From contig CAVJHG010000006.1 of NCBI GenBank assembly GCA_963649335.1, positions 8,062 through 72,061 on the forward strand: a DNA stretch of 64,000 bases, read 5' to 3'. How positions within the stretch are numbered: the stretch's first letter is position 1; every line of letters begins with the position of its first letter. The translations under genes and the position numbers were made by a program. The DNA is from a bacterium (GTDB lineage: Bacteria; Bacillota; Clostridia; Lachnospirales; Lachnospiraceae). Below are positions 52,433 to 63,394 of the stretch, in pieces. The notes beneath the pieces were generated by a model that made no database searches, was not told where the DNA came from, and worked only from the letters and a program-made list of their open reading frames with translations.

Positions 52433-54151
52433 CTACTGACCTGTAATCGCCTGCTTTAGAGCTTCAAGCTTGGCAGCTGAATCCTCCAGGCTATTTCCCT
52501 TTACTCCAAAATAATACTTTATCTTTGGCTCTGTTCCTGATGGTCTCACACAGCACCAGGCATTGTCTGATAGCTCATAATAAAGGACATTTGACTCAGG
52601 AAGGCCAGTGTCCTCCTCCTTGCCTGATAAGAGATCACGACGCTTGCCGATTTTGTAATCTCTCACTGCCAAAACCTGAAAGCCGGCAAGCTCCTTTGGC
52701 GGATTTTCCCTGTAGCTGGTCATAAGCTTACTTATTTCCTTGGCACCATCAATACCCTTTAGGGTAACTGTAGCCAGGCCTTCTCTATAATAACCATATT
52801 TCTCATACATCTCCACCATGGCATCCCAAAGGGTCTTGCCCTGCAGCTTATAGTAAGAGGCCACCTCACAAAGCATCATTACTGCCACACAGGCATCCTT
52901 ATCTCTGGCATAGGTGCCTGCTAGGCAGCCATAGGATTCCTCCAAACCGAATACATAATTGTAGGTCTTGTTTTCTTCAAAAAGCTTAATCTGTTCCCCT
53001 ATATACTTAAAACCAGTAAGTACCTCAATTAAAGCCACCCCATAATCAGCGGCAATGGCTTTTGCCATATCTGTTGTGACAATGGTCTCCACCAAGGCAG
53101 GCTTTTCAGGCATGGTTTTCTCTGCTCTCTTTTCACTAAGAATATATTGGGCTATAAGCATGCCTGACATGTTACCTGTAAAGCTTACATAATTGCCTGT
53201 AGCTAAGTCTTTGCAATATACTCCCAAACGATCTGCATCAGGATCTGTTGCAAGAACTATATCTGCATCCACCTCCTTAGCCAGCTCCAAAGCTAAAGTC
53301 CAGGCCTTCTCGTCCTCAGGGTTTGGATAGGCAACAGTAGGAAAATTGCCGTCAGGCTCCTTTTGCTCCTCTACAACAAAAACCTTTGTAAAGCCTAACT
53401 CCTTTAAAACACGACGCACCGGAATATTACCTGTGCCATGGAGAGGAGTATAAACAATTTTAATATCAGAAGCTGCTTTTTTTATAAGCTCTGGGTGTAT
53501 GGATTGAGCCTTCAATTCCTTGATGTAAGCGTCATCCATTTCACTACCTATAATATTAAAAAGGCCTGACACCCTAGCCAGGTCCTCACTTATTGTCTTT
53601 ACCTGAGAAAAATCAGTCACCTGAGCCACCATAGCTAAAATATTTTTATCATGAGGCGGTGTAATCTGGGCTCCATCCTCCCAATAAACCTTATAACCGT
53701 TGTATTCTCTAGGATTATGGCTGGCAGTAATGACAATTCCTGCTATACATCCAAGCTGTCTTAGGGCAAAGGAAAGCTCTGGTGTAGGACGCAGGCTCTC
53801 GAAAAGATATGTCTTAATGCCATTGCCATTAAGACATAGGGCCGCCTCCCTGGCAAACTCCGGTGACATACGTCTTGAATCATAAGCTATGGCAACCCCC
53901 TTATCTTGTCCCTGCTGAGTCAATATATAGTTAGCCAAACCCTGAGTAGCCTGCCGCACCGTATAGATATTCATCCTGTTGGTGCCAGCCCCAATAACTC
54001 CGCGCAGACCTCCAGTACCAAATTCCAGCTGTCTGTAAAACCGATCCTCTATTTCTGCCTCATCATTTGCAATGGCCTTTAGCTCATCTCTTGTAGCCTG
54101 ATCAAAATATGGATCATTGCACCACTTCTCATATTCTTCTCTGTAATTCAT
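52433..54151 (-). CDS. pgm: Phosphoglucomutase/phosphomannomutase
   Basis: FGTGGLRG, ITASHNP, DPDADR, GLEESYG, RPSGTEPK. Confidence 0.93.
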   Translation of the reverse strand: MNYREEYEKWCNDPYFDQATRDELKAIANDEAEIEDRFYRQLEFGTGGLRGVIGAGTNRMNIYTVRQATQGLANYILTQQGQDKGVAIAYDSRRMSPEFAREAALCLNGNGIKTYLFESLRPTPELSFALRQLGCIAGIVITASHNPREYNGYKVYWEDGAQITPPHDKNILAMVAQVTDFSQVKTISEDLARVSGLFNIIGSEMDDAYIKELKAQSIHPELIKKAASDIKIVYTPLHGTGNIPVRRVLKELGFTKVFVVEEQKEPDGNFPTVAYPNPEDEKAWTLALELAKEVDADIVLATDPDADRLGVYCKDLATGNYVSFTGNMSGMLIAQYILSEKRAEKTMPEKPALVETIVTTDMAKAIAADYGVALIEVLTGFKYIGEQIKLFEENKTYNYVFGLEESYGCLAGTYARDKDACVAVMMLCEVASYYKLQGKTLWDAMVEMYEKYGYYREGLATVTLKGIDGAKEISKLMTSYRENPPKELAGFQVLAVRDYKIGKRRDLLSGKEEDTGLPESNVLYYELSDNAWCCVRPSGTEPKIKYYFGVKGNSLEDSAAKLEALKQAITGQ

Positions 54152-54474
54152 AAAAACCTCCTATACTTATTTAGGTTAATTTTAAGTTAAATATATTATA
54201 TATTAATCATTTAGTCAACTTAATTTAATTGTCGGTAAAAAAGCTTTATTTACATTTTAACTATTCTTTATTCTCCTTTGTTCAACTAACAAAATCTTTA
54301 CTAAAAATAAAAAAGATTGCTCTATTCATCTTTTTCTATTTTTCATATCCCATATCCATTAAATAAGCTAAATGCTATAATAGCAATAGTCGAAATTGTT
54401 TGCCTCACCTTAGCTACCGCTAAGAAGCAGGAGCCTTCAACAATTGAATTAAACTATATTTTAAGGAGCCCATT

Positions 54475-55218
54475 ATGTTACCTGACAATTATGATAACTA
54501 TATTTTTGATTTATACGGAACCTTGGTAGATATACATACCGATGAAGATTCTGACCTTCTCTGGGAAAAATTAAGTTTTTTTATGAGCTACTATGGTGCC
54601 ACCTATTCTCCCCTTGATTTAAAAGACAGCTATCAGAAATTAGTAAAAAAAGAACAGGCTCTTTTATCTGAAAAAAAGCCTGCTCAAATAAACAGAAATG
54701 ACAGTCACGAAGCTAGTCCAGAAATAGATATAAAGACTGTTTTTAAAAAGCTCTACACTGAAAAAAAAGTAGATGCATCTGAAGAATTAATACTTCACAC
54801 AGGCCAGTTCTTCAGGGCTCTTTCTACGCAATACCTTAAGCTTTATCCTGGCACAAAATCCATGCTAGCTTCTCTCAAGGAAGCTGGCAAAAATGTATAT
54901 CTTCTTTCCAATGCCCAGCGCATCTTTACCGCTTACGAGTTAAAGTACCTAGGTATATCAGATTACTTTGATGATATTTTTATATCCTCTGATTATGGCA
55001 CTAAAAAGCCTGATCCTGACTTTTTTAACGCCCTCATAAATAAGCATAAGCTTGATATAAATAAATCTATATACATAGGCAATGATTCCATATGCGACAT
55101 ATACGGTGCCAGCCGCCTTGGCATGGACACCTTTTATGTCCGCTCAAACATATCTCCAAAGGGGGACGAGGCGCCTTCTGCTAGCTACTCTATTGAGGAC
55201 TTCACGGGGTGGGTATAA
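54475..55218 (+). CDS. HAD-family hydrolase
   Basis: FDLYGTLVD, LSN, KKPD, IGND motifs. Confidence 0.88.
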   Translation: MLPDNYDNYIFDLYGTLVDIHTDEDSDLLWEKLSFFMSYYGATYSPLDLKDSYQKLVKKEQALLSEKKPAQINRNDSHEASPEIDIKTVFKKLYTEKKVDASEELILHTGQFFRALSTQYLKLYPGTKSMLASLKEAGKNVYLLSNAQRIFTAYELKYLGISDYFDDIFISSDYGTKKPDPDFFNALINKHKLDINKSIYIGNDSICDIYGASRLGMDTFYVRSNISPKGDEAPSASYSIEDFTGWV

Positions 55219-55220
55219 TA

Positions 55221-56528
55221 TCATATGTCCATCGCCTCTCCTATCTGCTCAATTGCATACAATGGCAAATTTACAAGACCGTCTTCTATTTTATAATCGG
55301 ACATTGATGTTCGTATAGCTATTTGAGGTGAATATTTATCCCGATATGTTTTCAAACTTTTAGCCCTTAGGTTGATTTCAGCCTTTACTTCTAGTGGTGC
55401 TACCATTTTTCCACTGTCCACAATGAAGTCTATCTCACAGCTTCCCCGGTCATTGGTATAATAGTACACTCCCAGGTCTTCAATAGTTTTTAGCTGCTGA
55501 CATACATATTGCTCTGTAAGCGCACCCTTAAACTCAACGAAAAGTTCGTTACCATCAAGAAGGATAGTTTGATGTAACCCCACCATACAACTAAGCAGCC
55601 CTACATCCAACAGAAAAAGTTTGAAGGCCTTCAAATCTTCGTATGCTCTTAATGGTATTCCCGGACTATTTACACGACTAATCTTATGAATCAAGCCGCA
55701 ATCAGAAAGCCACATTATTGCTGTCTCATAATCCTTTGCTCGAGCGCCTTCGCGCACAAGACCATAAATAAACTTTTTATTTTCTTTAGCAAGCTGAGAA
55801 GGAATACTGTTCCACAGCAAACGAATCTTTGGCACTATATCATGAGGGGCATGTTTTGAAAAATCCTGTTCATATGCAGTAAGTATTCGTTTTTGAATTT
55901 CCCGTGCTTCATTAAAATCGTGATTTTCAACAAAAGCTTGAACAACTTCCGGCATTCCACCTACATAATAATAATGCTTTAGGGCATCTATATAAGTTTG
56001 TTTAAAGCTTCTGATCATATCAAAATCATTACTTTTTAAAAGCTCAACATAACGTTCCATTCCCATTGCCATTAGAAACTCAGTATAGGACAAAGGATAA
56101 AGCTTTAAAAAATCAACCTTGCCTACAGGAAATGATGTCCCTGTATGTAAAGCAAGCCCCAAAAGAGAGCCAGCACATACAATATGATATTGGGGAGCAT
56201 TTTCACAGAAATATTTCAATGACGTCAATGCTCTCGGAACCTCCTGGACCTCATCAAATATCAAAAGTGTACTGTCAGGATTGATTTTCTTACCAGAATA
56301 AAGCTCCAACCCCATGATAAGTCTCTCCGTGTTAAGATCCGTGTCAAACAATTCCAGCATTCTTGAATTAGAGTCGAAATTTATATATACTACATCCTCA
56401 TATGCCTGCTTACCAAATTCCTTCATAAGCCAGGTCTTTCCTACCTGTCTTGCCCCTTCTATAATCAAGGGCTTACGATATTTTTTTACTTTCCATTTCA
56501 ATAATTCCTCAATAGCAGCTCTATACAT
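55221..56528 (-). CDS. AAA+ ATPase (AAA_14) with DUF4143 / PD-(D/E)XK-like C-terminus
   Basis: Walker A GARQVGKT, Walker B IFDEVQ, GGMP, C-terminal EIDF...PLEVK; start ATG 56528 with AGGAGG. Confidence 0.88.
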   Translation of the reverse strand: MYRAAIEELLKWKVKKYRKPLIIEGARQVGKTWLMKEFGKQAYEDVVYINFDSNSRMLELFDTDLNTERLIMGLELYSGKKINPDSTLLIFDEVQEVPRALTSLKYFCENAPQYHIVCAGSLLGLALHTGTSFPVGKVDFLKLYPLSYTEFLMAMGMERYVELLKSNDFDMIRSFKQTYIDALKHYYYVGGMPEVVQAFVENHDFNEAREIQKRILTAYEQDFSKHAPHDIVPKIRLLWNSIPSQLAKENKKFIYGLVREGARAKDYETAIMWLSDCGLIHKISRVNSPGIPLRAYEDLKAFKLFLLDVGLLSCMVGLHQTILLDGNELFVEFKGALTEQYVCQQLKTIEDLGVYYYTNDRGSCEIDFIVDSGKMVAPLEVKAEINLRAKSLKTYRDKYSPQIAIRTSMSDYKIEDGLVNLPLYAIEQIGEAMDI

Positions 56529-56608
56529 AAAAACGCCTCCTTTGACATAAGTATACAAAAATATGAAACAAAACTAACATCGAGCTTTTGCATCATAATA
56601 TAATGTAT

Positions 56609-56637
56609 ATTATAGCCGGTGAAAACACTTTTATCAA
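56609..56637 (-). promoter_or_regulatory. Sigma-A promoter of the AAA/DUF4143 gene, overlapping repeat unit 1
   Basis: TTGATA-17-TATAAT. Confidence 0.7.
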
Positions 56638-56752
56638 TGAATTTTTGCATGTAAGCAACACTTTTTACAACGAATAAACGCGATACCTCAACACTTTTTG
56701 CAAGGAACAAGTGTAATATCTCAACACTTTTTACAACGAATAAATATAACAG
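56621..56752. repeat. Four tandem 33-bp units with conserved core AACACTTTT(T)nCAAnGAA
   Basis: Core starts at 56624, 56657, 56690 and 56723 (exact 33-bp period); the 3' ~10 nt of each unit vary. Confidence 0.9.
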
Positions 56753-56801
56753 GTAAATAACAGATAAATGGCAAATTTAACTTCCCTTTTGCAAAAGTAA
56801 C

Positions 56802-57671
56802 TTAATTATTTCTGGTAACAAACAAGCCTGCCAGCACCAGAATTATGCCTATTATCTTACCTAGCGTAAGGCCCTCTCCATATACAATAAGTCCAAGTAC
56901 AGTAGCGGTCACAGGCTCTATTGAGGCCACTACTGCTGCAGTGGAATTATCTACCTGTCTAAGCCCTAAGGTATACAGCAGATATGGTGCCACTGTGCAA
57001 AGTATGCCCAAAGCGAGGGCTAAAAGCAAAAAGCTTCCAGATGAAAAAGTAACTGCACAAACTGAAGGAATATTGGCAAATAAGCCTGATGCAATTGCAG
57101 TCACCACAAAGGTGTAGCAGGTAATGGTAAGGGAGTGATAACCCCTGTCCAAGGCATAGCGGCTAAAGATAGAATACAGGGCATATCCAAGGCCTGCTCC
57201 AAGGCCATACAAGAGTCCTGACAGGGTAATAGCCGTGCCCGAGCCTATACCTGTAACCAATATACAGCCTATAAAGGTTAATACTATAGCAAGAATCTTT
57301 CGCTTGGTAAAAAGCTCTTTAAAAAGGAAAAAGGAAAGTACCATAACAATGGCTGGCGCTGTATAAAGAAGTACTGCTGCTGCAGACATACTGCTTAGCT
57401 CAATGGCCTTAAAATAACAGAAATTAAAAAAGGTGATACTGGCTATACCTGTTCCAAGAAAACACCAAATATCCTTTAATCTGATGTGTAGCATCTCCCT
57501 GTGAAAAATCAATAGATATCCTATCATGGCAAGAGCCGTTACAATTCCACGCAAAAAAACAATGTCCATGGACTCTATACCCACTGCGTTAAAGGACCTG
57601 ACAAATAAGCCAAGACAGCCCCAGAGTATTCCCGAAAGTAGTATATAAATAAATGCCTTTGCCTGCTTCAT
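56802..57671 (-). CDS. EamA/DMT family transporter
   Basis: About ten TMs in two repeats, LLYTAP, ASIEPV. Confidence 0.9.
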   Translation of the reverse strand: MKQAKAFIYILLSGILWGCLGLFVRSFNAVGIESMDIVFLRGIVTALAMIGYLLIFHREMLHIRLKDIWCFLGTGIASITFFNFCYFKAIELSSMSAAAVLLYTAPAIVMVLSFFLFKELFTKRKILAIVLTFIGCILVTGIGSGTAITLSGLLYGLGAGLGYALYSIFSRYALDRGYHSLTITCYTFVVTAIASGLFANIPSVCAVTFSSGSFLLLALALGILCTVAPYLLYTLGLRQVDNSTAAVVASIEPVTATVLGLIVYGEGLTLGKIIGIILVLAGLFVTRNN

Positions 57672-57697
57672 AGCCTTACCTCCCTGGTGTTATATAC

Positions 57698-57724
57698 AAA
57701 AAGAAGGGGCGAAAGCCCCCTCTT
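57698..57724 (-). terminator. Terminator downstream of prd operon
   Basis: AAGAGGGGGC-TTTC-GCCCCTTCTT plus U-tract. Confidence 0.8.
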
Positions 57725-57731
57725 AGATAAA

Positions 57732-57879
57732 TAACTATTCAACCCCCAAATTCGCTAAAATCCCACATACCGTAATTTTAGCGAATGAGGTATCTCGTCA
57801 AATTAAACTAAATCATCATCTGTGGGAAAGCAAGCTTTCCACATCTGATTATTGTGTTTAATTTGGTTCTAAATAGTTA
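57732..57879. other. Multi-stem structured intergenic element (MITE/REP-like or ncRNA)
   Basis: Outer IR taactatt/aatagtta encloses a 12-bp hairpin attcgctaaaat/attttagcgaat and a long hairpin caaattaaac...ggaaagc aa gctttcc...gtttaatttg. Confidence 0.6.
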
Positions 57880-58602
57880 CACGTTGTGTCTGTACTCGTA
57901 TGGTAACACTTTCATTCCATTATAGCTAGGGCAGTCTCTTACCCACTCAAGGGATTCCTTTACGATAGCTGTCTGCATAGGAATATTGTTTGGCTCACCG
58001 GCATTAGATCCGATAGGCACATGTGGTGCAGTAATACGAGGTGCTCCCTGCTGACGGGCAATAGGAGGAAGGGCTGCAATAACTACGCAGCTCATGCCCT
58101 CAGCCTCACAGCAACGGGTAACGATAGTTGCCGAACGGTGACAGGTACCGCAGCCGCCTGTACAAAGCACTATGTCTACTCCCTGGTCCTTCAGCTTTTT
58201 GGCAATCTCTGGTCCAGTCTTATTTGTAAACATCTCAACATTTCCACCGCCTCCCATGAAGGTGTAGGTCTCATCTGCAAGAGAACCAATAAAGCCCTCC
58301 TCTACCAGCTCATGCAATCTGTCGATAGGAAACATTGCATTGACATCCTTGTTAATGTCTGAGTTGTCAAATCCACCATGGGTAACCATAAGCTCACTTG
58401 ATGGAGTGTCAAATGGAATAGTACGGTATGAAAAATCTCCGGATGTATTAAATGGAACCTGACTCTTCATATGGATACCACCTGCTGTAATAAATGCCAC
58501 CTTGCATTCACTCAGGGGTTTCTTTAATTCTGTAAATACCGGCTTTGGTGTAACTGGTACGAATATCTCTGACTGCAGTCCTTCTACTGTTGTTAAGCTC
58601 AT
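57877..58602 (-). CDS. prdB: D-proline reductase subunit PrdB, cysteine form
   Basis: Start ATG 58602 (MSLTTVEGLQSEIFVP, 241 aa); HGGFDNSD.NKDVNAMFP; active site GG-C-GTCHRSA encoded by TGC, not TGA. Confidence 0.92.
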   Translation of the reverse strand: MSLTTVEGLQSEIFVPVTPKPVFTELKKPLSECKVAFITAGGIHMKSQVPFNTSGDFSYRTIPFDTPSSELMVTHGGFDNSDINKDVNAMFPIDRLHELVEEGFIGSLADETYTFMGGGGNVEMFTNKTGPEIAKKLKDQGVDIVLCTGGCGTCHRSATIVTRCCEAEGMSCVVIAALPPIARQQGAPRITAPHVPIGSNAGEPNNIPMQTAIVKESLEWVRDCPSYNGMKVLPYEYRHNV

Positions 58603-58613
58603 ATTCTCGCCTC

Positions 58614-59060
58614 CTATATTGATTCTACTGGGATATCTCTTTTTCCAACCACATTCATGCAGCTGAAATAAAATTCTGTGTCCTGACCTTCCTTGAGCTC
58701 CACAGGGGTAAAAGCCCACCTGCGGGGAACTGCTATGGTGCCAAGGGAATCCTGTATATCCACCTTTATTGCTGTATCGTTTACCTCAGAAATTTTGCCT
58801 CCTAAAAGCACAGGCTCAATTTCATGACTAGTGGTCATGTCCATTGAATCATAGTCGTATGGATTTTCCACTATCTGTATATAGCTGAAGAAAAACTCCA
58901 TCTCATGTCCTGGTTCAAGCTCTTCTCTAGTGATGACAAGACGCTTTGGAACGGTAATCACTCCAAGGCGGCCGTGCAGATGGACTTTTACTTTCTTGTC
59001 ATCTACTTCCTTTACCAGGCCTCCCATGCGGATGGGATTAATCATGTAATCAAGCATCAT
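58614..59060 (-). CDS. Proline reductase cluster protein, CBO2463/CBO2479-like, duplicated domain
   Basis: Two repeats of GG.V.EV.D...KV....LG.I.VP.R......EL..G...EF.FS. Confidence 0.75.
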   Translation of the reverse strand: MMLDYMINPIRMGGLVKEVDDKKVKVHLHGRLGVITVPKRLVITREELEPGHEMEFFFSYIQIVENPYDYDSMDMTTSHEIEPVLLGGKISEVNDTAIKVDIQDSLGTIAVPRRWAFTPVELKEGQDTEFYFSCMNVVGKRDIPVESI

Positions 59061-60871
59061 TAGTGCAATGTGCCGTTATCATAAAGGACTGTCTCAGGCA
59101 GACCCAGCAGCTTATTATTGCTGTTGATAACGTCGTTATTCCACTTTTTCGGTGCAGGAGCTACCTCAACACCGGCCATCTTATTCTTCAGCATCTGAAT
59201 TGCACGGGCTGCTACTTCCTTGGTTACACATGAACATCCGGCTACATTGTTCTCAAATCCACCCTTGTCCATATTTTCCTCAACCATGGCAGTAGCGTAT
59301 TTGTTTCCTACTACCAGCTGACCCTGGTAAGCACAGAAGGAAACACCAACTACAGGGATTCCTCGCTTGCCTGCCTGTCCTATATGCTGGATAAAATCAA
59401 TATGGTTATTGCCAAAGCCCTCTGTAGTAATGATACAGCCGTCAATATCAAGGGCCTCAAGAAGAGAGCCTAAGCGCTCTGATACCCAGAGCTTTTCATC
59501 ATTTACCTGAGGAGAGCCAACACATACAACACCAATCAAGTCAAGCTCTGTATCTGCTGCAAGGCCTTCTACAAGAGGCTCTCTGATATAGTGACGTGTC
59601 ATTTCCTTGGTAGCAGGTCCGATACATGTAAGTGCATGGATAGAACCATCTCTTACCTGGTTAGGAGTTAACATAATAGGCACATTGCCGCAGTCTACAT
59701 TCTTCTGGCCACCTAAGATACCGCAAGGCTCTGTAGGACAGATAACATTGTCATGCATGGCTCCCTGACCCATGATTTCCTTTACAAGCACAACACGTGG
59801 GTTGCCGGAGCGACGTATATCCTCACAGATTTCTTCACGAACAATCTCGCCCTCATAGCTTTTAAGCTGGTCTCTGATAGCCTGGATAATGTAATCCTGA
59901 CACTTATGAGCTGCAAAAGGACCTGGACGAGTCATACCGGTAAGTCTCTCGATGACTGCATGACAGCGGATAATAATATCATTTTCATCTGCACAGCCAG
60001 GATGGCCAAAATACATTTTCTCATCAAGATAACCCTCTGATGATCCAAATTCATGGACCTGAACACCATCCTCGTCTACACCAGTCAGCATAAATACTAC
60101 GCCATCTGCCACCTTGGTAATGCCTTCACCCAGCTCACCCTCTACCTTGGTTGCTATAGGGCATACATCCATGATAGTCTCGGTATATACATGTCTCTTG
60201 TCAGGATAGATAACATCAAGTGTAATGCTCTTACAAAGTGGATCCTCTCCGATAGCCTTTTCTACAATGGACTTGTCTATAGTGATCTTACCATCCTTAA
60301 TAGATGTTTCATCACCAAGCTCTACCTCAGTGATTTTGATATGCTGCTTTTTTAAGGTACGAATAACCTTCTTTTCCCCTACAGGTGCTGATGGCACTGC
60401 TGCAGGCTCTTCCTCAGCTACTGCAGGCACTGCTGGTGCTACTGCTGCCCCTGGAAAAAGAGGTATATCAAGTCTTAATCCTTCCAGACTTGAGGCCTTG
60501 TCGATTTCAATGTGTAACATTTGCTCTCCTCCTTTGCTTTGTATAATCTTAGCTGGACCTTCAGTGATTACTGGCTTTGTCTCTGTTAGCTCAGGCTCTG
60601 CTGCCGTCTCAGCTGTCTCATTAATCTTGTCAAGGACATCCCTTGTAATAGGGGTTAGGGCTTCCACATCACAAAGGAGCTTAGAGCCTAATACCTGCTC
60701 AATTTTCAATCCATCCTCTGACAGGGTGAGAAGACCTGCCTCTTCCATGTCATCAAAAAGTGATGGATCCTCTAAATCTGCTGCAGAAATAACAAGACCC
60801 TTTTCCCTGCGACAGCAAAATATTGCTGGGTCCTTAAGATGTGCATTTAATGTTTCTGCTGTAATTGACAT
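59060..60871 (-). CDS. prdA: D-proline reductase proprotein PrdA
   Basis: MSITAET..AHLKDPAIFCCR, EIMGQGAMHDN, HALT-CIGPA pyruvoyl cleavage site, EGFGNNHIDF. Confidence 0.93.
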   Translation of the reverse strand: MSITAETLNAHLKDPAIFCCRREKGLVISAADLEDPSLFDDMEEAGLLTLSEDGLKIEQVLGSKLLCDVEALTPITRDVLDKINETAETAAEPELTETKPVITEGPAKIIQSKGGEQMLHIEIDKASSLEGLRLDIPLFPGAAVAPAVPAVAEEEPAAVPSAPVGEKKVIRTLKKQHIKITEVELGDETSIKDGKITIDKSIVEKAIGEDPLCKSITLDVIYPDKRHVYTETIMDVCPIATKVEGELGEGITKVADGVVFMLTGVDEDGVQVHEFGSSEGYLDEKMYFGHPGCADENDIIIRCHAVIERLTGMTRPGPFAAHKCQDYIIQAIRDQLKSYEGEIVREEICEDIRRSGNPRVVLVKEIMGQGAMHDNVICPTEPCGILGGQKNVDCGNVPIMLTPNQVRDGSIHALTCIGPATKEMTRHYIREPLVEGLAADTELDLIGVVCVGSPQVNDEKLWVSERLGSLLEALDIDGCIITTEGFGNNHIDFIQHIGQAGKRGIPVVGVSFCAYQGQLVVGNKYATAMVEENMDKGGFENNVAGCSCVTKEVAARAIQMLKNKMAGVEVAPAPKKWNNDVINSNNKLLGLPETVLYDNGTLH

Positions 60872-60884
60872 AAGATTTCCTCCT

Positions 60885-62198
60885 TTATCCTTTAAATTTT
60901 CTTATAAGCTTATTGTTTACTGCTCTTAGGCTTCCATCGGTAATGTGATATACCGGAAGACCAAGACGAGGTGCACATGACATTACTGTGTTTGAACAAT
61001 CTGTGCAATTTCCTATGAGTATTGCCTGAGCACCAGCTTTTTTCAGTGCCATGACCTTCTGTACCTGACCTGGGCACTTGCCAGGATTTTGACATTTGAG
61101 ATTGCCCCTTACATCCTCTGCCTGCTTGCAGCACTCTATGCCTACCACCTCAGAGCCCATGCTCTCAGCTATCTGACACATTCTCTCTTTGTTGGCTCCA
61201 CAGGCACATACCAGAAGGCCAATCTTCTTTGGTCCCATAGGAAAACACTCTGCTGCAATAAGTCCACCTGTTGTCTTTATCACGGGAGCATCAAAGGATG
61301 TTCTTTTTCCTGTAAAAGGTCCTCCCATAATAAGCTCGCCGTAACCTTCCGCCAGGCCTCCTGCCCTTTCAAACATGGCTCCTACGCTGATTCCCAAAGG
61401 CACATCGGGGAAAATTTGCACCAGCTTATCTTCTTCATTGCCCCTTATCTTGCCTGCCACTGTCATGTCTTTATCTATGAGTGGCTTTTTGTCATCCACC
61501 GCCTCAGCTATCCTGCATGCTGTCTCAGCATTTATAACTATGGCATCTGCAGCAAGCGGAAGGTCTGTAACTGAAAGAAGCTTTCCTAAGGTCTCTCGGA
61601 TAATGGCCCTCTCCTCACCCATTGGATATATATTTTCCAATAGCTGCAGCCTGATGTTTTCATTGCTATTAGCTTTATTGAGAGCTTCTATAGCTTTGAT
61701 GTGGTATTTTTTTATAGCGACCACACCACTTGCTGCGTGGGTTACTTCCATGGCTATTTCAAGGCCCCGAAGAAGCTGCTTTGGCTTTGAAGTAATTCGG
61801 GCTATATTGTGGGAAAGTATTGGTTCACACTCTGCTGCATTGATTATGACTGTTCCACCGCTTTCAAAGGACTTTGATAGCTTTGCATATGTAGGAAAAC
61901 CTGCGCCACCCAGGCCAACTAAGCCAGCTTCCTTAATAAGCTCTATTGGTGTCTGGCCTTTTAGCCTTACATAATCACTGCCTTGATTGTCATCTGCTTC
62001 CACAAGTATGGTCTCAGCGTCAACTTCTCTTACATATCCTGATACACTGGAAAAAATGTTGCTTCCCAGGGCATCTTCCCTTTGATATGCAAGAAGCTGT
62101 CCCCTCAGTACCTTGTCACCATTGACTACCGAAGGAACAGCTTGCTGTCCTATACCTTGCTTCAGAGGATATTTAAAGATTGCTCCCATTGATATCAC
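60885..62198 (-). CDS. prdC: Proline reductase-associated electron transfer protein PrdC (RnfC-like)
   Basis: AGLVGLGGAGFPT, INAAECEP, YPMGEE, MGGPFTG, Cys-rich C-terminus (CACG, CPGQ, CTDC). Confidence 0.88.
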   Translation of the reverse strand: MISMGAIFKYPLKQGIGQQAVPSVVNGDKVLRGQLLAYQREDALGSNIFSSVSGYVREVDAETILVEADDNQGSDYVRLKGQTPIELIKEAGLVGLGGAGFPTYAKLSKSFESGGTVIINAAECEPILSHNIARITSKPKQLLRGLEIAMEVTHAASGVVAIKKYHIKAIEALNKANSNENIRLQLLENIYPMGEERAIIRETLGKLLSVTDLPLAADAIVINAETACRIAEAVDDKKPLIDKDMTVAGKIRGNEEDKLVQIFPDVPLGISVGAMFERAGGLAEGYGELIMGGPFTGKRTSFDAPVIKTTGGLIAAECFPMGPKKIGLLVCACGANKERMCQIAESMGSEVVGIECCKQAEDVRGNLKCQNPGKCPGQVQKVMALKKAGAQAILIGNCTDCSNTVMSCAPRLGLPVYHITDGSLRAVNNKLIRKFKG

Positions 62199-62228
62199 CT
62201 CTTTGCTTTTCTATTTGTTTATGGGCTT

Positions 62229-62296
62229 AGTATAGAAGCCCTTCTGTCATTAGTAAAGAAGGAGTACTCTATACCCTTCATAACAATTACTTATGA
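62229..62296 (-). promoter_or_regulatory. prdC promoter with LysR-type T-N11-A dyad at about -65
   Basis: TTTACT-17-TATACT (62257-62229); TCATAA-N7-TTATGA at 62278-62296. Confidence 0.6.
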
Positions 62297-62356
62297 TAAA
62301 AAGTCCGCTTTTGGATCCAATTATTCCAAGGTCATGCCACTCACCAAAATACTAAT

Positions 62357-63394
62357 TTAACCCATGGCCCCCAGCAAAAATCCATACTCCTGGGGATCTG
62401 TGTCATCAAGTATCCACTGGTTCATACCGGTAATGTAGGCCGATCCTGTAATCTGGGGGATTACAGCATGTATTCCACCCTCCAGCTCTATGGTATCCAC
62501 CACCTCGCCTCTAAAAAGAGAGCCAGTTATACTTTCATAGACAAAGGGCTGATGTAAGCCTAACTCTCCCTTTGCAAAAAGGGCCGCCATCTTGGCAGAA
62601 GTACCTGTACCGCAGGGAGACCTGTCAGCCTGGGCCATGCCAAATATAACGCAATTTTTCAAATGAGCCTTTTCATTGTCCGCCGGTCCATAAAACTCCA
62701 CCAGATCAGCTGTGCTTATGTCCAAATAGGGATGCTTTATCTTTACCTCTTTATTGACTATTTCAAGGAGCTTCATGCCAAGAGATGTCAGTGCTTCAAT
62801 ATTATCCATAGAAAGATTAATTCCTACCTGCTTAGCACTGACAAGAACAAAAAATGACCCGCCAAAGGATATGTCATATTCCACCTTGCCAAAGCCCGGC
62901 ACATCAGCGGTCAGATTTTCCTTATATAAAAATCCTGGCACATTTTGTATGGTGACTTCCTTGGCCTTGCCCCTCTCCACCTTGACTCTTGTTTTTATAA
63001 GGCCTGATGGGGCATCTAAAATAACCTGGGTATAGGGCTCAGTCACTTCAACCATGCCTGTTTCCACCAGCATGGAGGCTGCACCTATGGAGCCATGGCC
63101 ACACATATTAAGATAGCCTCCTGTATCCATAAAAATTACACCATAGTCGGCTTCCTTATGGACAGGCTTTGTTAAAAGAGCCCCAAACATGTCCCTATGG
63201 CCTCTGGGCTCAAGCATAAGAGCCTTACGATAGTGATCAAAATGCTCAATGACATATTGCTTTTTTTCCATCATGGTATTTCCCACAGGCTCTGGAAAGC
63301 CCTCGTATACTATACGGGTTGCCTCCCCCATGGTATGAGAGTCAATTGTCTTAAAAAGATGCTCATATTTTTCCGGCTTAAAATGACATTCCAT
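62357..63394 (-). CDS. prdF: Proline racemase
   Basis: DSHTMGE, EPRGHRDMFG, catalytic MCGHG and DRSPCGTGT (two Cys). Confidence 0.92.
   Translation of the reverse strand: MECHFKPEKYEHLFKTIDSHTMGEATRIVYEGFPEPVGNTMMEKKQYVIEHFDHYRKALMLEPRGHRDMFGALLTKPVHKEADYGVIFMDTGGYLNMCGHGSIGAASMLVETGMVEVTEPYTQVILDAPSGLIKTRVKVERGKAKEVTIQNVPGFLYKENLTADVPGFGKVEYDISFGGSFFVLVSAKQVGINLSMDNIEALTSLGMKLLEIVNKEVKIKHPYLDISTADLVEFYGPADNEKAHLKNCVIFGMAQADRSPCGTGTSAKMAALFAKGELGLHQPFVYESITGSLFRGEVVDTIELEGGIHAVIPQITGSAYITGMNQWILDDTDPQEYGFLLGAMG

Follow-up and report, generated by a model that had tools for sequence, protein, structure and literature searches.

Upstream of a gene for a fused ATPase and nuclease in the window (the whole 64,000-nt stretch of DNA analysed here) stands an array of phased 33-bp repeats, which raises the question of what the array is for and which protein reads it. 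The initial annotation suggested an iteron-like platform on which the ATPase oligomerises, for autoregulation or for self-recognition by a defence or mobility nuclease. We find that the phased array is a real, family-wide cis element of a known, uncharacterised protein family. We propose, with a probability of about 0.65, that it is an autorepression operator bound by the gene's own protein through a predicted winged helix.

Gene, Promoter, and Array in the Window

The gene lies among housekeeping genes on a 92-kb contig, and its single-gene ORF contains both AAA_14 (PF13173) and DUF4143 (PF13635) above the Pfam cut-off. PADLOC matches the protein over its full length to PDC-S01 (residues 1-430, E 4e-187), and an NCBIfam scan of the protein gave no match. 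The ATG at 56528, giving 435 aa, is the likely start codon in preference to the TTG at 56558 of the ORF list, and a ribosome-binding site stands before it. The features of the locus are as follows:

55221..56528, minus strand: AAA_14 + DUF4143 (PDC-S01) gene, 435 aa (Pfam, PADLOC, translation)
56536..56543, minus strand: ribosome-binding site (from sequence; most of the homologs examined have a comparable site ahead of the start codon)
56568..56591, minus strand: fifth box, decayed, 11.5-11.8 bits with the clade matrix, 57 bp from box 1, out of phase and downstream of the -10
56609..56637, minus strand: predicted sigma-70-type promoter, -35 at 56637-56632 within box 1 and -10 at 56614-56609 (consensus scan; same geometry at 82/96 close homologs)
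56625..56648, minus strand: box 1, promoter-proximal, holding the -35, 17.9 bits
56658..56681, minus strand: box 2, 24.1 bits
56691..56714, minus strand: box 3, 20.7 bits, its outer arms forming an imperfect inverted repeat (from sequence)
56724..56747, minus strand: box 4, distal, 22.9 bits

The array spans 56621-56752 and consists of four 33-nt units starting at 56621, 56654, 56687, and 56720, whose letters agree exactly with those first reported. Tandem Repeats Finder places it at the top of 22 rows for the window (period 33, score 122; runner-up 51). The best periodicity in the 300 nt upstream of the gene covers 50/66 positions, a value reached by none of 2000 doublet shuffles (maximum 40). 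The TTGATA-17-TATAAT promoter with its -35 in unit 1, also claimed at the outset, is found on the minus strand at 56637..56609 with 11/12 consensus matches. Such a match by itself is weak evidence, because the scan returned 12 promoter-like sites against 7.6 in shuffles.

The box matrix used for these scores was trained on 96 other loci and seeded with the boxes of three other loci; these three were first located by a window-seeded matrix, and the box matrix is thus not fully independent of the window. It scores at least 11 bits at 57 of 4,865,304 genome positions. Phased pairs of the window's box in the 2.43-Mb genome are confined to the three pairs within the window array, and a search of that genome for orphan phased arrays of this box found none elsewhere, contrary to the possibility that the same repeat occurs genome-wide.

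At its 3′ end the gene borders directly on a convergent HAD gene (end at 55218; ATPase stop codon at 55221-55223; gap of 2 nt), and a terminator scan found no terminator-like site at this junction, as the initial annotation had described. The left end of the array-gene unit is probably a few bases past box 4, judging from junctions in relatives. Between the EamA stop codon and box 4 there is a perfect 12-bp palindrome (56786-56797), where no terminator was called. The decayed fifth box has a broken -35 and is followed by a second -10-like hexamer (56550-56555), and with these two elements the predicted leader is about 50 nt longer than in most homologs. This region likely represents an older promoter copy, possibly displaced by the present array. 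Two homologous loci (L141 and L028) have about 140 extra nt separating promoter and gene.

Several other identities for the repeats were considered and rejected. For a CRISPR array or structured RNA, an Rfam scan of 54000-58000 gave one chance match (E 0.62) outside the array, and 9-bp spacers are too short for CRISPR. For a coding repeat of 11 residues, only one frame, on the minus strand, stays open across the array (99 codons in the 300 nt examined, and without an ATG ahead of the repeats), the other five being closed. A reading-frame origin is further disfavoured because boxes in relatives are spaced by 32 bp in 21/90 intervals. A plasmid iteron origin does not agree with the housekeeping surroundings on a 92-kb contig, and Pfam and NCBIfam gave no Rep family match.

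The Array as a Family Trait

From 315 loci we obtained 281 family ORFs, of which 253 were complete with at least 200 nt upstream and 210 remained after dereplication at 95%; the window gene and two paralogs are included in this set. A check of whether phased repeats are general, suggested at the outset, gave a best period of 31-35 bp in the 200 nt upstream of 124/210 homologs versus 42/351 other genes at the same loci, with 86/210 homologs having no best period in this range. For 71 genome-collection homologs, a best period of 32 or 33 bp was found at the promoter in 42/71, further upstream in 9/71, within the gene in 5/71, and downstream in 2/64. Plasmid-collection loci from other phyla showed a period of 32 or 33 bp in 5/7 cases (Glaesserella, Segatella, Fusobacterium, Acinetobacter, and Collinsella). 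The Bacteroides plasmid locus has two copies 66 bp apart (by eye), and no such period was seen upstream at the Vibrio locus. Across phyla, the box type follows the ATPase-nuclease protein.

Close homologs (at least 64% identity, n = 96) do not lack the repeats, as they might have if the array were peculiar to the window: at least one box is present in 91/96 and at least two in 73/96, leaving 23/96 with fewer than two, five of them with none. One 95%-identical copy (L151) has lost the entire array at -27.

The genome of the window contains five AAA_14+DUF4143 genes, each with 15-16/16 repeat matches upstream at a period of 33 (three genes, including that in the window) or 40 (two genes). The four paralogs are located as follows:

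G000 contigs C8, C30, C1, and C46 (L002-L005): four further family genes, with upstream arrays of period 33 in two and 40 in two, one period-40 array being palindromic

The clade matrix scores 24.2 on the window array and at most 7.4 on the other four, and each array type is single-copy in the genome. By this sequence measure, the arrays are paralog-specific and do not cross-match.

Box Anatomy and Constraint

Over the 96 close loci, the repeat unit resolves into a 24-bp box and a 9-bp spacer. Each box opens with a 4-bp arm of weak conservation, continues with a C-R-N-Y-G core set between two A/T tracts, and closes on TG; boxes are spaced by 32 or 33 bp in 87/90 intervals. Of the matrix matches of at least 10 bits at these loci, 166 fall on the sense strand of the upstream 200 nt (the training region), against 2 in the 200 nt downstream and 3 within genes; boxes downstream of the gene that could serve as paired ends were not found in the window's clade (96 loci). 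At 82/96 loci one box carries the -35, 16-18 nt ahead of a -10-like hexamer.

The boxes might instead be promoter elements read by the host, i.e., phased A-tracts and duplicated -35 hexamers, amplified by slippage, which would bend the DNA or be contacted by RNA polymerase or a host factor but not by the ATPase. Each box indeed has two A/T tracts 11 bp apart, the core includes a -35-like hexamer in the window's clade, copy number ranges from 0 to 6 (commonest 2), and some arrays are near-perfect tandem copies. Phased A-tracts activate Clostridium promoters, which counts for this reading; our literature search returned no paper on this effect.

The distribution of constraint within the boxes argues against this reading. 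In distal boxes (n = 82), C10 (95%), G14 (97%), T22 (93%), G23 (100%), and the A-tract (89-95%) are kept, while positions 12-13 relax to 56% and 71% T. Proximal boxes (n = 82) have 95% and 98% T at these two positions, and their second tract is turned to T, because the promoter (-35) requires both. Between-locus identity is 33% for spacers and 66% for boxes. As their conserved positions are kept while positions 12-13 and the spacers relax, distal boxes carry a sequence constraint of their own, and near-invariant C10, G14, and G23 beside free spacers would be unexpected for plain A-tracts. Moreover, cores in other clades are without a -35 sequence, and their boxes also occur downstream of the -10 and over the -10 and start region. 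A host factor would also have to read five different boxes for five paralogs in one cell, would find no phased pair of the window's box elsewhere in the genome, and would leave unexplained why the same box type accompanies the protein across phyla. We consider a host-read array quite unlikely.

A Predicted Winged Helix Between ATPase and Nuclease

A structure model of the 435-aa protein (pLDDT 85) suggests the following domains, by our reading of its secondary structure:

Residues ~1-145: AAA+ ATPase
Residues ~146-230: helical domain
Residues ~231-306: predicted winged helix
Residues ~335-435: PD-(D/E)XK-type nuclease

Residues 1-317 of the model align to the archaeal ATPases 2qen (Z 15.1, rmsd 5.1, 269 aligned) and 2fna (Z 14.4), as well as to CED-4/NLR cores and, more weakly, to DNA-bound Orc1/Cdc6. 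Because of these fold matches and the helix-helix-helix-strand-strand order at residues 232-306, a winged helix is predicted between ATPase and nuclease; its atlas matches are weak (0.77-0.78), and the assignment rests on topology. The predicted order of AAA+, winged helix, and nuclease would be the arrangement that an iteron-like platform requires. Further, G191 and P193 are kept in 206/210 and 210/210 homologs respectively and form what we take to be the GxP motif, so that the protein has the STAND-class layout of an NTPase, a helical domain with this motif, and then a winged helix. The nuclease domain is without an independent fold match, since a solved-structure sequence search with the protein returned 0 matches and the single-sequence fold of residues 229-435 reached a pLDDT of 42.5. 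A homodimer prediction scored 0.00, which decides neither way.

The restriction-endonuclease-like EIDF...EVK tail noted at the outset is present as E365, D367, E380, and K382, kept in 209, 200, 208, and 209 of the 210 homologs respectively, while Walker A K31 and Walker B D92/E93 are invariant (210/210). Going by their motifs, these conserved residues would be catalytic. Ratios of pN/pS are 0.05-0.14 in eight more diverged pairs; three near-identical pairs, which differ by only a dozen or so changes apiece, give 0.36-0.63. As judged from these alignments, the family is under purifying selection with both predicted active sites intact.

Does the predicted winged helix change with the box? Box similarity tracks protein similarity, with Spearman coefficients of 0.74 (74 loci) and 0.38 (83 loci), a trend that co-inheritance alone explains since shared descent predicts it. 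Our first domain-level test, with global similarity removed, used anchored boxes and kept the 74/175 loci that were confident. It gave no winged-helix peak; partial r was ~0 for windows starting at residues 241-281, and the maxima lay elsewhere. The second test covered 83/210 more diverse loci (one of them a run of N), with a box-calling threshold near the 90th percentile of the null. Here a positive partial correlation (0.11) was obtained for the winged helix and for none of the other four domains, and the peak of 0.14, at windows starting at 261-271, compares with a 95% permutation level of 0.136. Thus, the co-variation with protein phylogeny proposed in the initial annotation stands for overall similarity, whereas the domain-level signal was absent in the first test and borderline in the second; co-variation of the winged helix with the box beyond shared descent is suggestive at best. 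At L070, L081, L082, and L261, sister proteins whose recognition helices are almost identical are accompanied by different 6-bp cores, so the box core may drift.

Genomic Context and Movement of the Array-Gene Unit

Neighbouring genes are nearly all different from locus to locus. Among 95 hand-picked neighbours scanned from 176 extracted ORFs, 23 are without a family, 7 belong to defence or toxin-antitoxin families (a raw count, without a background rate), 5 are mobile-element genes, and 60 are mostly metabolic, transport, or housekeeping genes. At 4/7 plasmid-collection loci, genes for HipA, restriction, or DUF262 proteins lie within 3-4 kb. The window gene is weakly marked as foreign, because its GC (0.379) and GC3 (0.328) are slightly below those of five neighbours (0.38-0.45 and 0.37-0.41). 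Elsewhere in the window, 57877-63394 holds a proline racemase/reductase-type cluster (GRDB, Gly_reductase, RnfC-like, and Pro_racemase families), in which the CxxC motif of the GRDB-family ORF is read through without an in-frame stop; some relatives have selenocysteine at this position.

Relatives provide direct comparisons of unit and surroundings. A sister unit is 98.5-99.1% identical in five species of the genus that differ in its neighbours, and extends from 129-143 nt before the start codon (at the distal box) to 0-20 nt past the stop codon. The flanking regulator gene common to several of these species is only 93-96% identical, and transfer of the unit was therefore recent. On the widespread Bacteroides plasmid pMMCAT (L357:3866-5287 versus L364:1675-3101), a PDC-S01 unit replaces most of a hipBA operon: the tail of the HTH gene and the hipA pair, which a related plasmid keeps, are missing, and one joint lies no more than ~10 nt from the first repeat, the other 5 nt beyond the stop codon. 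One sister species is without a four-gene block, including two family members, at the same site. These alignments indicate that array and gene move between species as one unit. At three loci (L042, L063, and L319) family members stand in tandem, the second beginning shortly after the stop codon of the first.

For the window gene itself, an empty site was not found: HAD matches in 40 relatives are at most 47% identical, and a comparison of the EamA gene with 33 other genomes of the genus returned nothing at E 1e-30 or better. Searches for an empty site on plasmids yielded a single replacement site and none that was cleanly empty, and a DNA search with the sister cassette in 150 other genomes of the family gave no close copy (best long match 66%).

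Such movement could mean that array and gene form a minimal element able to mobilise itself, whose end is recognised at the array, with the ATPase assembling on the boxes and the nuclease cutting to move or fix the unit. The largely housekeeping neighbours, different at almost every locus, the near-identical unit in five species, and joints near the first box and the stop codon fit this reading, as does the C-terminal tail beyond the last conserved motif, which varies from 3 to 26 residues in the family. Flanking direct repeats scoring at least 22 likewise occur at 7/189 loci, versus 0/941 mismatched pairs, and are variable in length. Yet a fixed end, a terminal inverted repeat, and a constant target duplication are all absent, and none of these surrounds the window gene. 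Each array type is present once in the genome of the window, and no DDE, HUH, tyrosine, or serine recombinase is among the Pfam, NCBIfam, and fold matches listed (the fold matches cover residues 1-317). Unit ends are scattered over 10-20 nt, an 8-nt microhomology is present at one joint, and in the same genus Fic, GNAT, tRNA-editing, and CAAX-protease genes of 93-99% identity occur with equally tight ends and in shuffled order. Because the joints are fuzzy and microhomology-joined and these unrelated small genes shuffle alike, the case for self-mobility is weakened, and with it the mobility nuclease of the initial annotation. We regard a self-mobilising element as unlikely.

A minority of family genes have imperfect flanking direct repeats of ~30-95 bp, seen at L358, L363, L143, L065, L130, L216, and L159, often as terminator-like hairpins or a neighbour's upstream region. 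Insertion sequence or transposon ends were rejected as an identity for the unit borders, given the variable ends, the lack of a constant target duplication, and an inverted-repeat score of at least 16 at only 3/189 loci. At common hot spots (L319, L320, L406, L409, L410, and L411), Fic genes with their own palindromic upstream repeats, GNAT, tRNA-editing, CAAX-protease, and PDC-S01 genes occur singly or paired. The ends of these genes in sister species are near promoter and stop codon, with at least one microhomology joint. The reshuffling of genes at these sites looks like cassette shuffling.

A Proposed Autorepression Mechanism

As would be expected of an operator array, the repeats overlap the gene's own predicted promoter and travel with the gene. 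We propose that four 24-bp boxes 33 bp apart, the innermost overlapping the predicted -35, are bound by the gene's own protein, which would thereby repress transcription. The winged helix would read the conserved C, G, and TG positions together with the A-tracts. Spacing by three helical turns would place the boxes on one face of the helix and allow cooperative binding of subunits, perhaps under nucleotide control. Bound subunits, with box 1 occluding the -35, would block RNA polymerase. Repression of this kind could hold down the level of a nuclease that may be toxic, a short burst of expression could follow when the unit enters a new host, and private boxes could let several paralogs coexist without mutual repression. 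The array-gene unit would likely be a passenger of host illegitimate recombination, with selection keeping the array attached.

Alternatively, the protein may activate its own promoter via the array, or the array may store the nuclease in an inactive state, without meaningful repression. Three of the four boxes are upstream of the -35, where activators bind, and a family member in Thermus is reported to be up 6.6-fold with plasmid DNA present (PMC4406477). This would not account for a proximal box that contains the -35 at 82/96 loci, nor for boxes over the -10 and start region in other clades, and the window promoter is already near consensus. Activation or storage without repression seems very unlikely.

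Given autorepression, the likeliest job of the nuclease would be a conditional response to invading DNA, a tentative assignment to which we give slightly less than even odds. It is doubtful, in turn, that PDC-S01 represents minimal selfish DNA elements, in which an ATPase-winged-helix-nuclease would use a private array as both operator and element end, non-cross-reacting groups would let several elements enter and persist in one genome, and the nuclease would aid spread or retention. If so, counts of PDC-S01 as immunity would need revising.

A conserved, paralog-specific array on its own promoter gives assays of binding, structure, and nuclease activity a defined DNA target, and makes function directly testable for a very abundant family to which the literature passages covered here assign none. 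We predict that the phenotype may go unseen when the ORF is expressed in a distant host or is separated from its native upstream DNA. Should binding prove true, a STAND-like ATPase-nuclease would act as a sequence-specific regulator, and the family would offer a natural set of orthogonal repressor-operator pairs.

Comparison With Known Systems

PDC-S01 is described in the main text of one survey as an ATPase fused to a PD-(D/E)XK domain and as the fourth most common defence candidate in prokaryotes, with validation pending and about 29,500 bacterial and 10,000 archaeal instances (PMC12988326). Among single loci in rumen genomes it is reported to be the most frequent (PMC13356809), and members of the PDC set were so classed for being found embedded within other systems (10.1101/2024.01.29.577857). 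When one PDC-S01 was challenged in E. coli with T4, T5, and T7, it was outside the four systems that the main text names as protective (PMC12881386). An anti-phage role is thus a candidate assignment for the family, and one published test of it was negative. One paper tabulates DUF4143/COG1373 as a PD-(D/E)XK family without a known function (PMC3424549), another includes it in a table of genes shared horizontally (PMC10782964), and two preprints name DUF4143 only briefly.

The window protein matches PDC-S01 at full length and with both Pfam domains. Published descriptions of PDC-S01, in their main-text passages, mention no upstream array, promoter overlap, or DNA target, and the main-text passages on DUF4143, PDC-S01, and COG1373 likewise contained no description of upstream arrays. 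Consequently, the claim of an undescribed system holds for the arrays in the literature searched, but not for the protein family, which is catalogued as PDC-S01 and COG1373.

The best fold matches to residues 1-317 are PAB2304 (2qen) and SSO1545 (2fna), archaeal STAND-like AAA+ ATPases, of which SSO1545 has been grouped with Cdc6/Orc1 (PMC4599002). Orc1/Cdc6 proteins, solved on origin DNA (2qby and 2v1u), have the same order of AAA+ and then winged helix. Identity to all of these is only 13-16%, and the window protein adds a C-terminal nuclease domain outside the matches. Unlike Orc1/Cdc6, it is accompanied by no sign of a replication origin at the window locus, and family searches returned no initiator match.

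Plasmid iterons with their Rep proteins and the C-box operators of restriction-modification controller proteins are the closest comparison systems for the array itself. Like these, the window system has phased repeats beside the gene of a (predicted) winged-helix or HTH protein, an overlapping promoter, and private specificity groups. It differs from them in its period of 33 bp (40 in two paralogs), in being a chromosomal single gene, with no DnaA boxes or origin seen, and in having no methyltransferase or separate controller gene among its flanking genes. Finally, in contrast to both, the predicted reader of the array, the ATPase, and the nuclease would all be one polypeptide.
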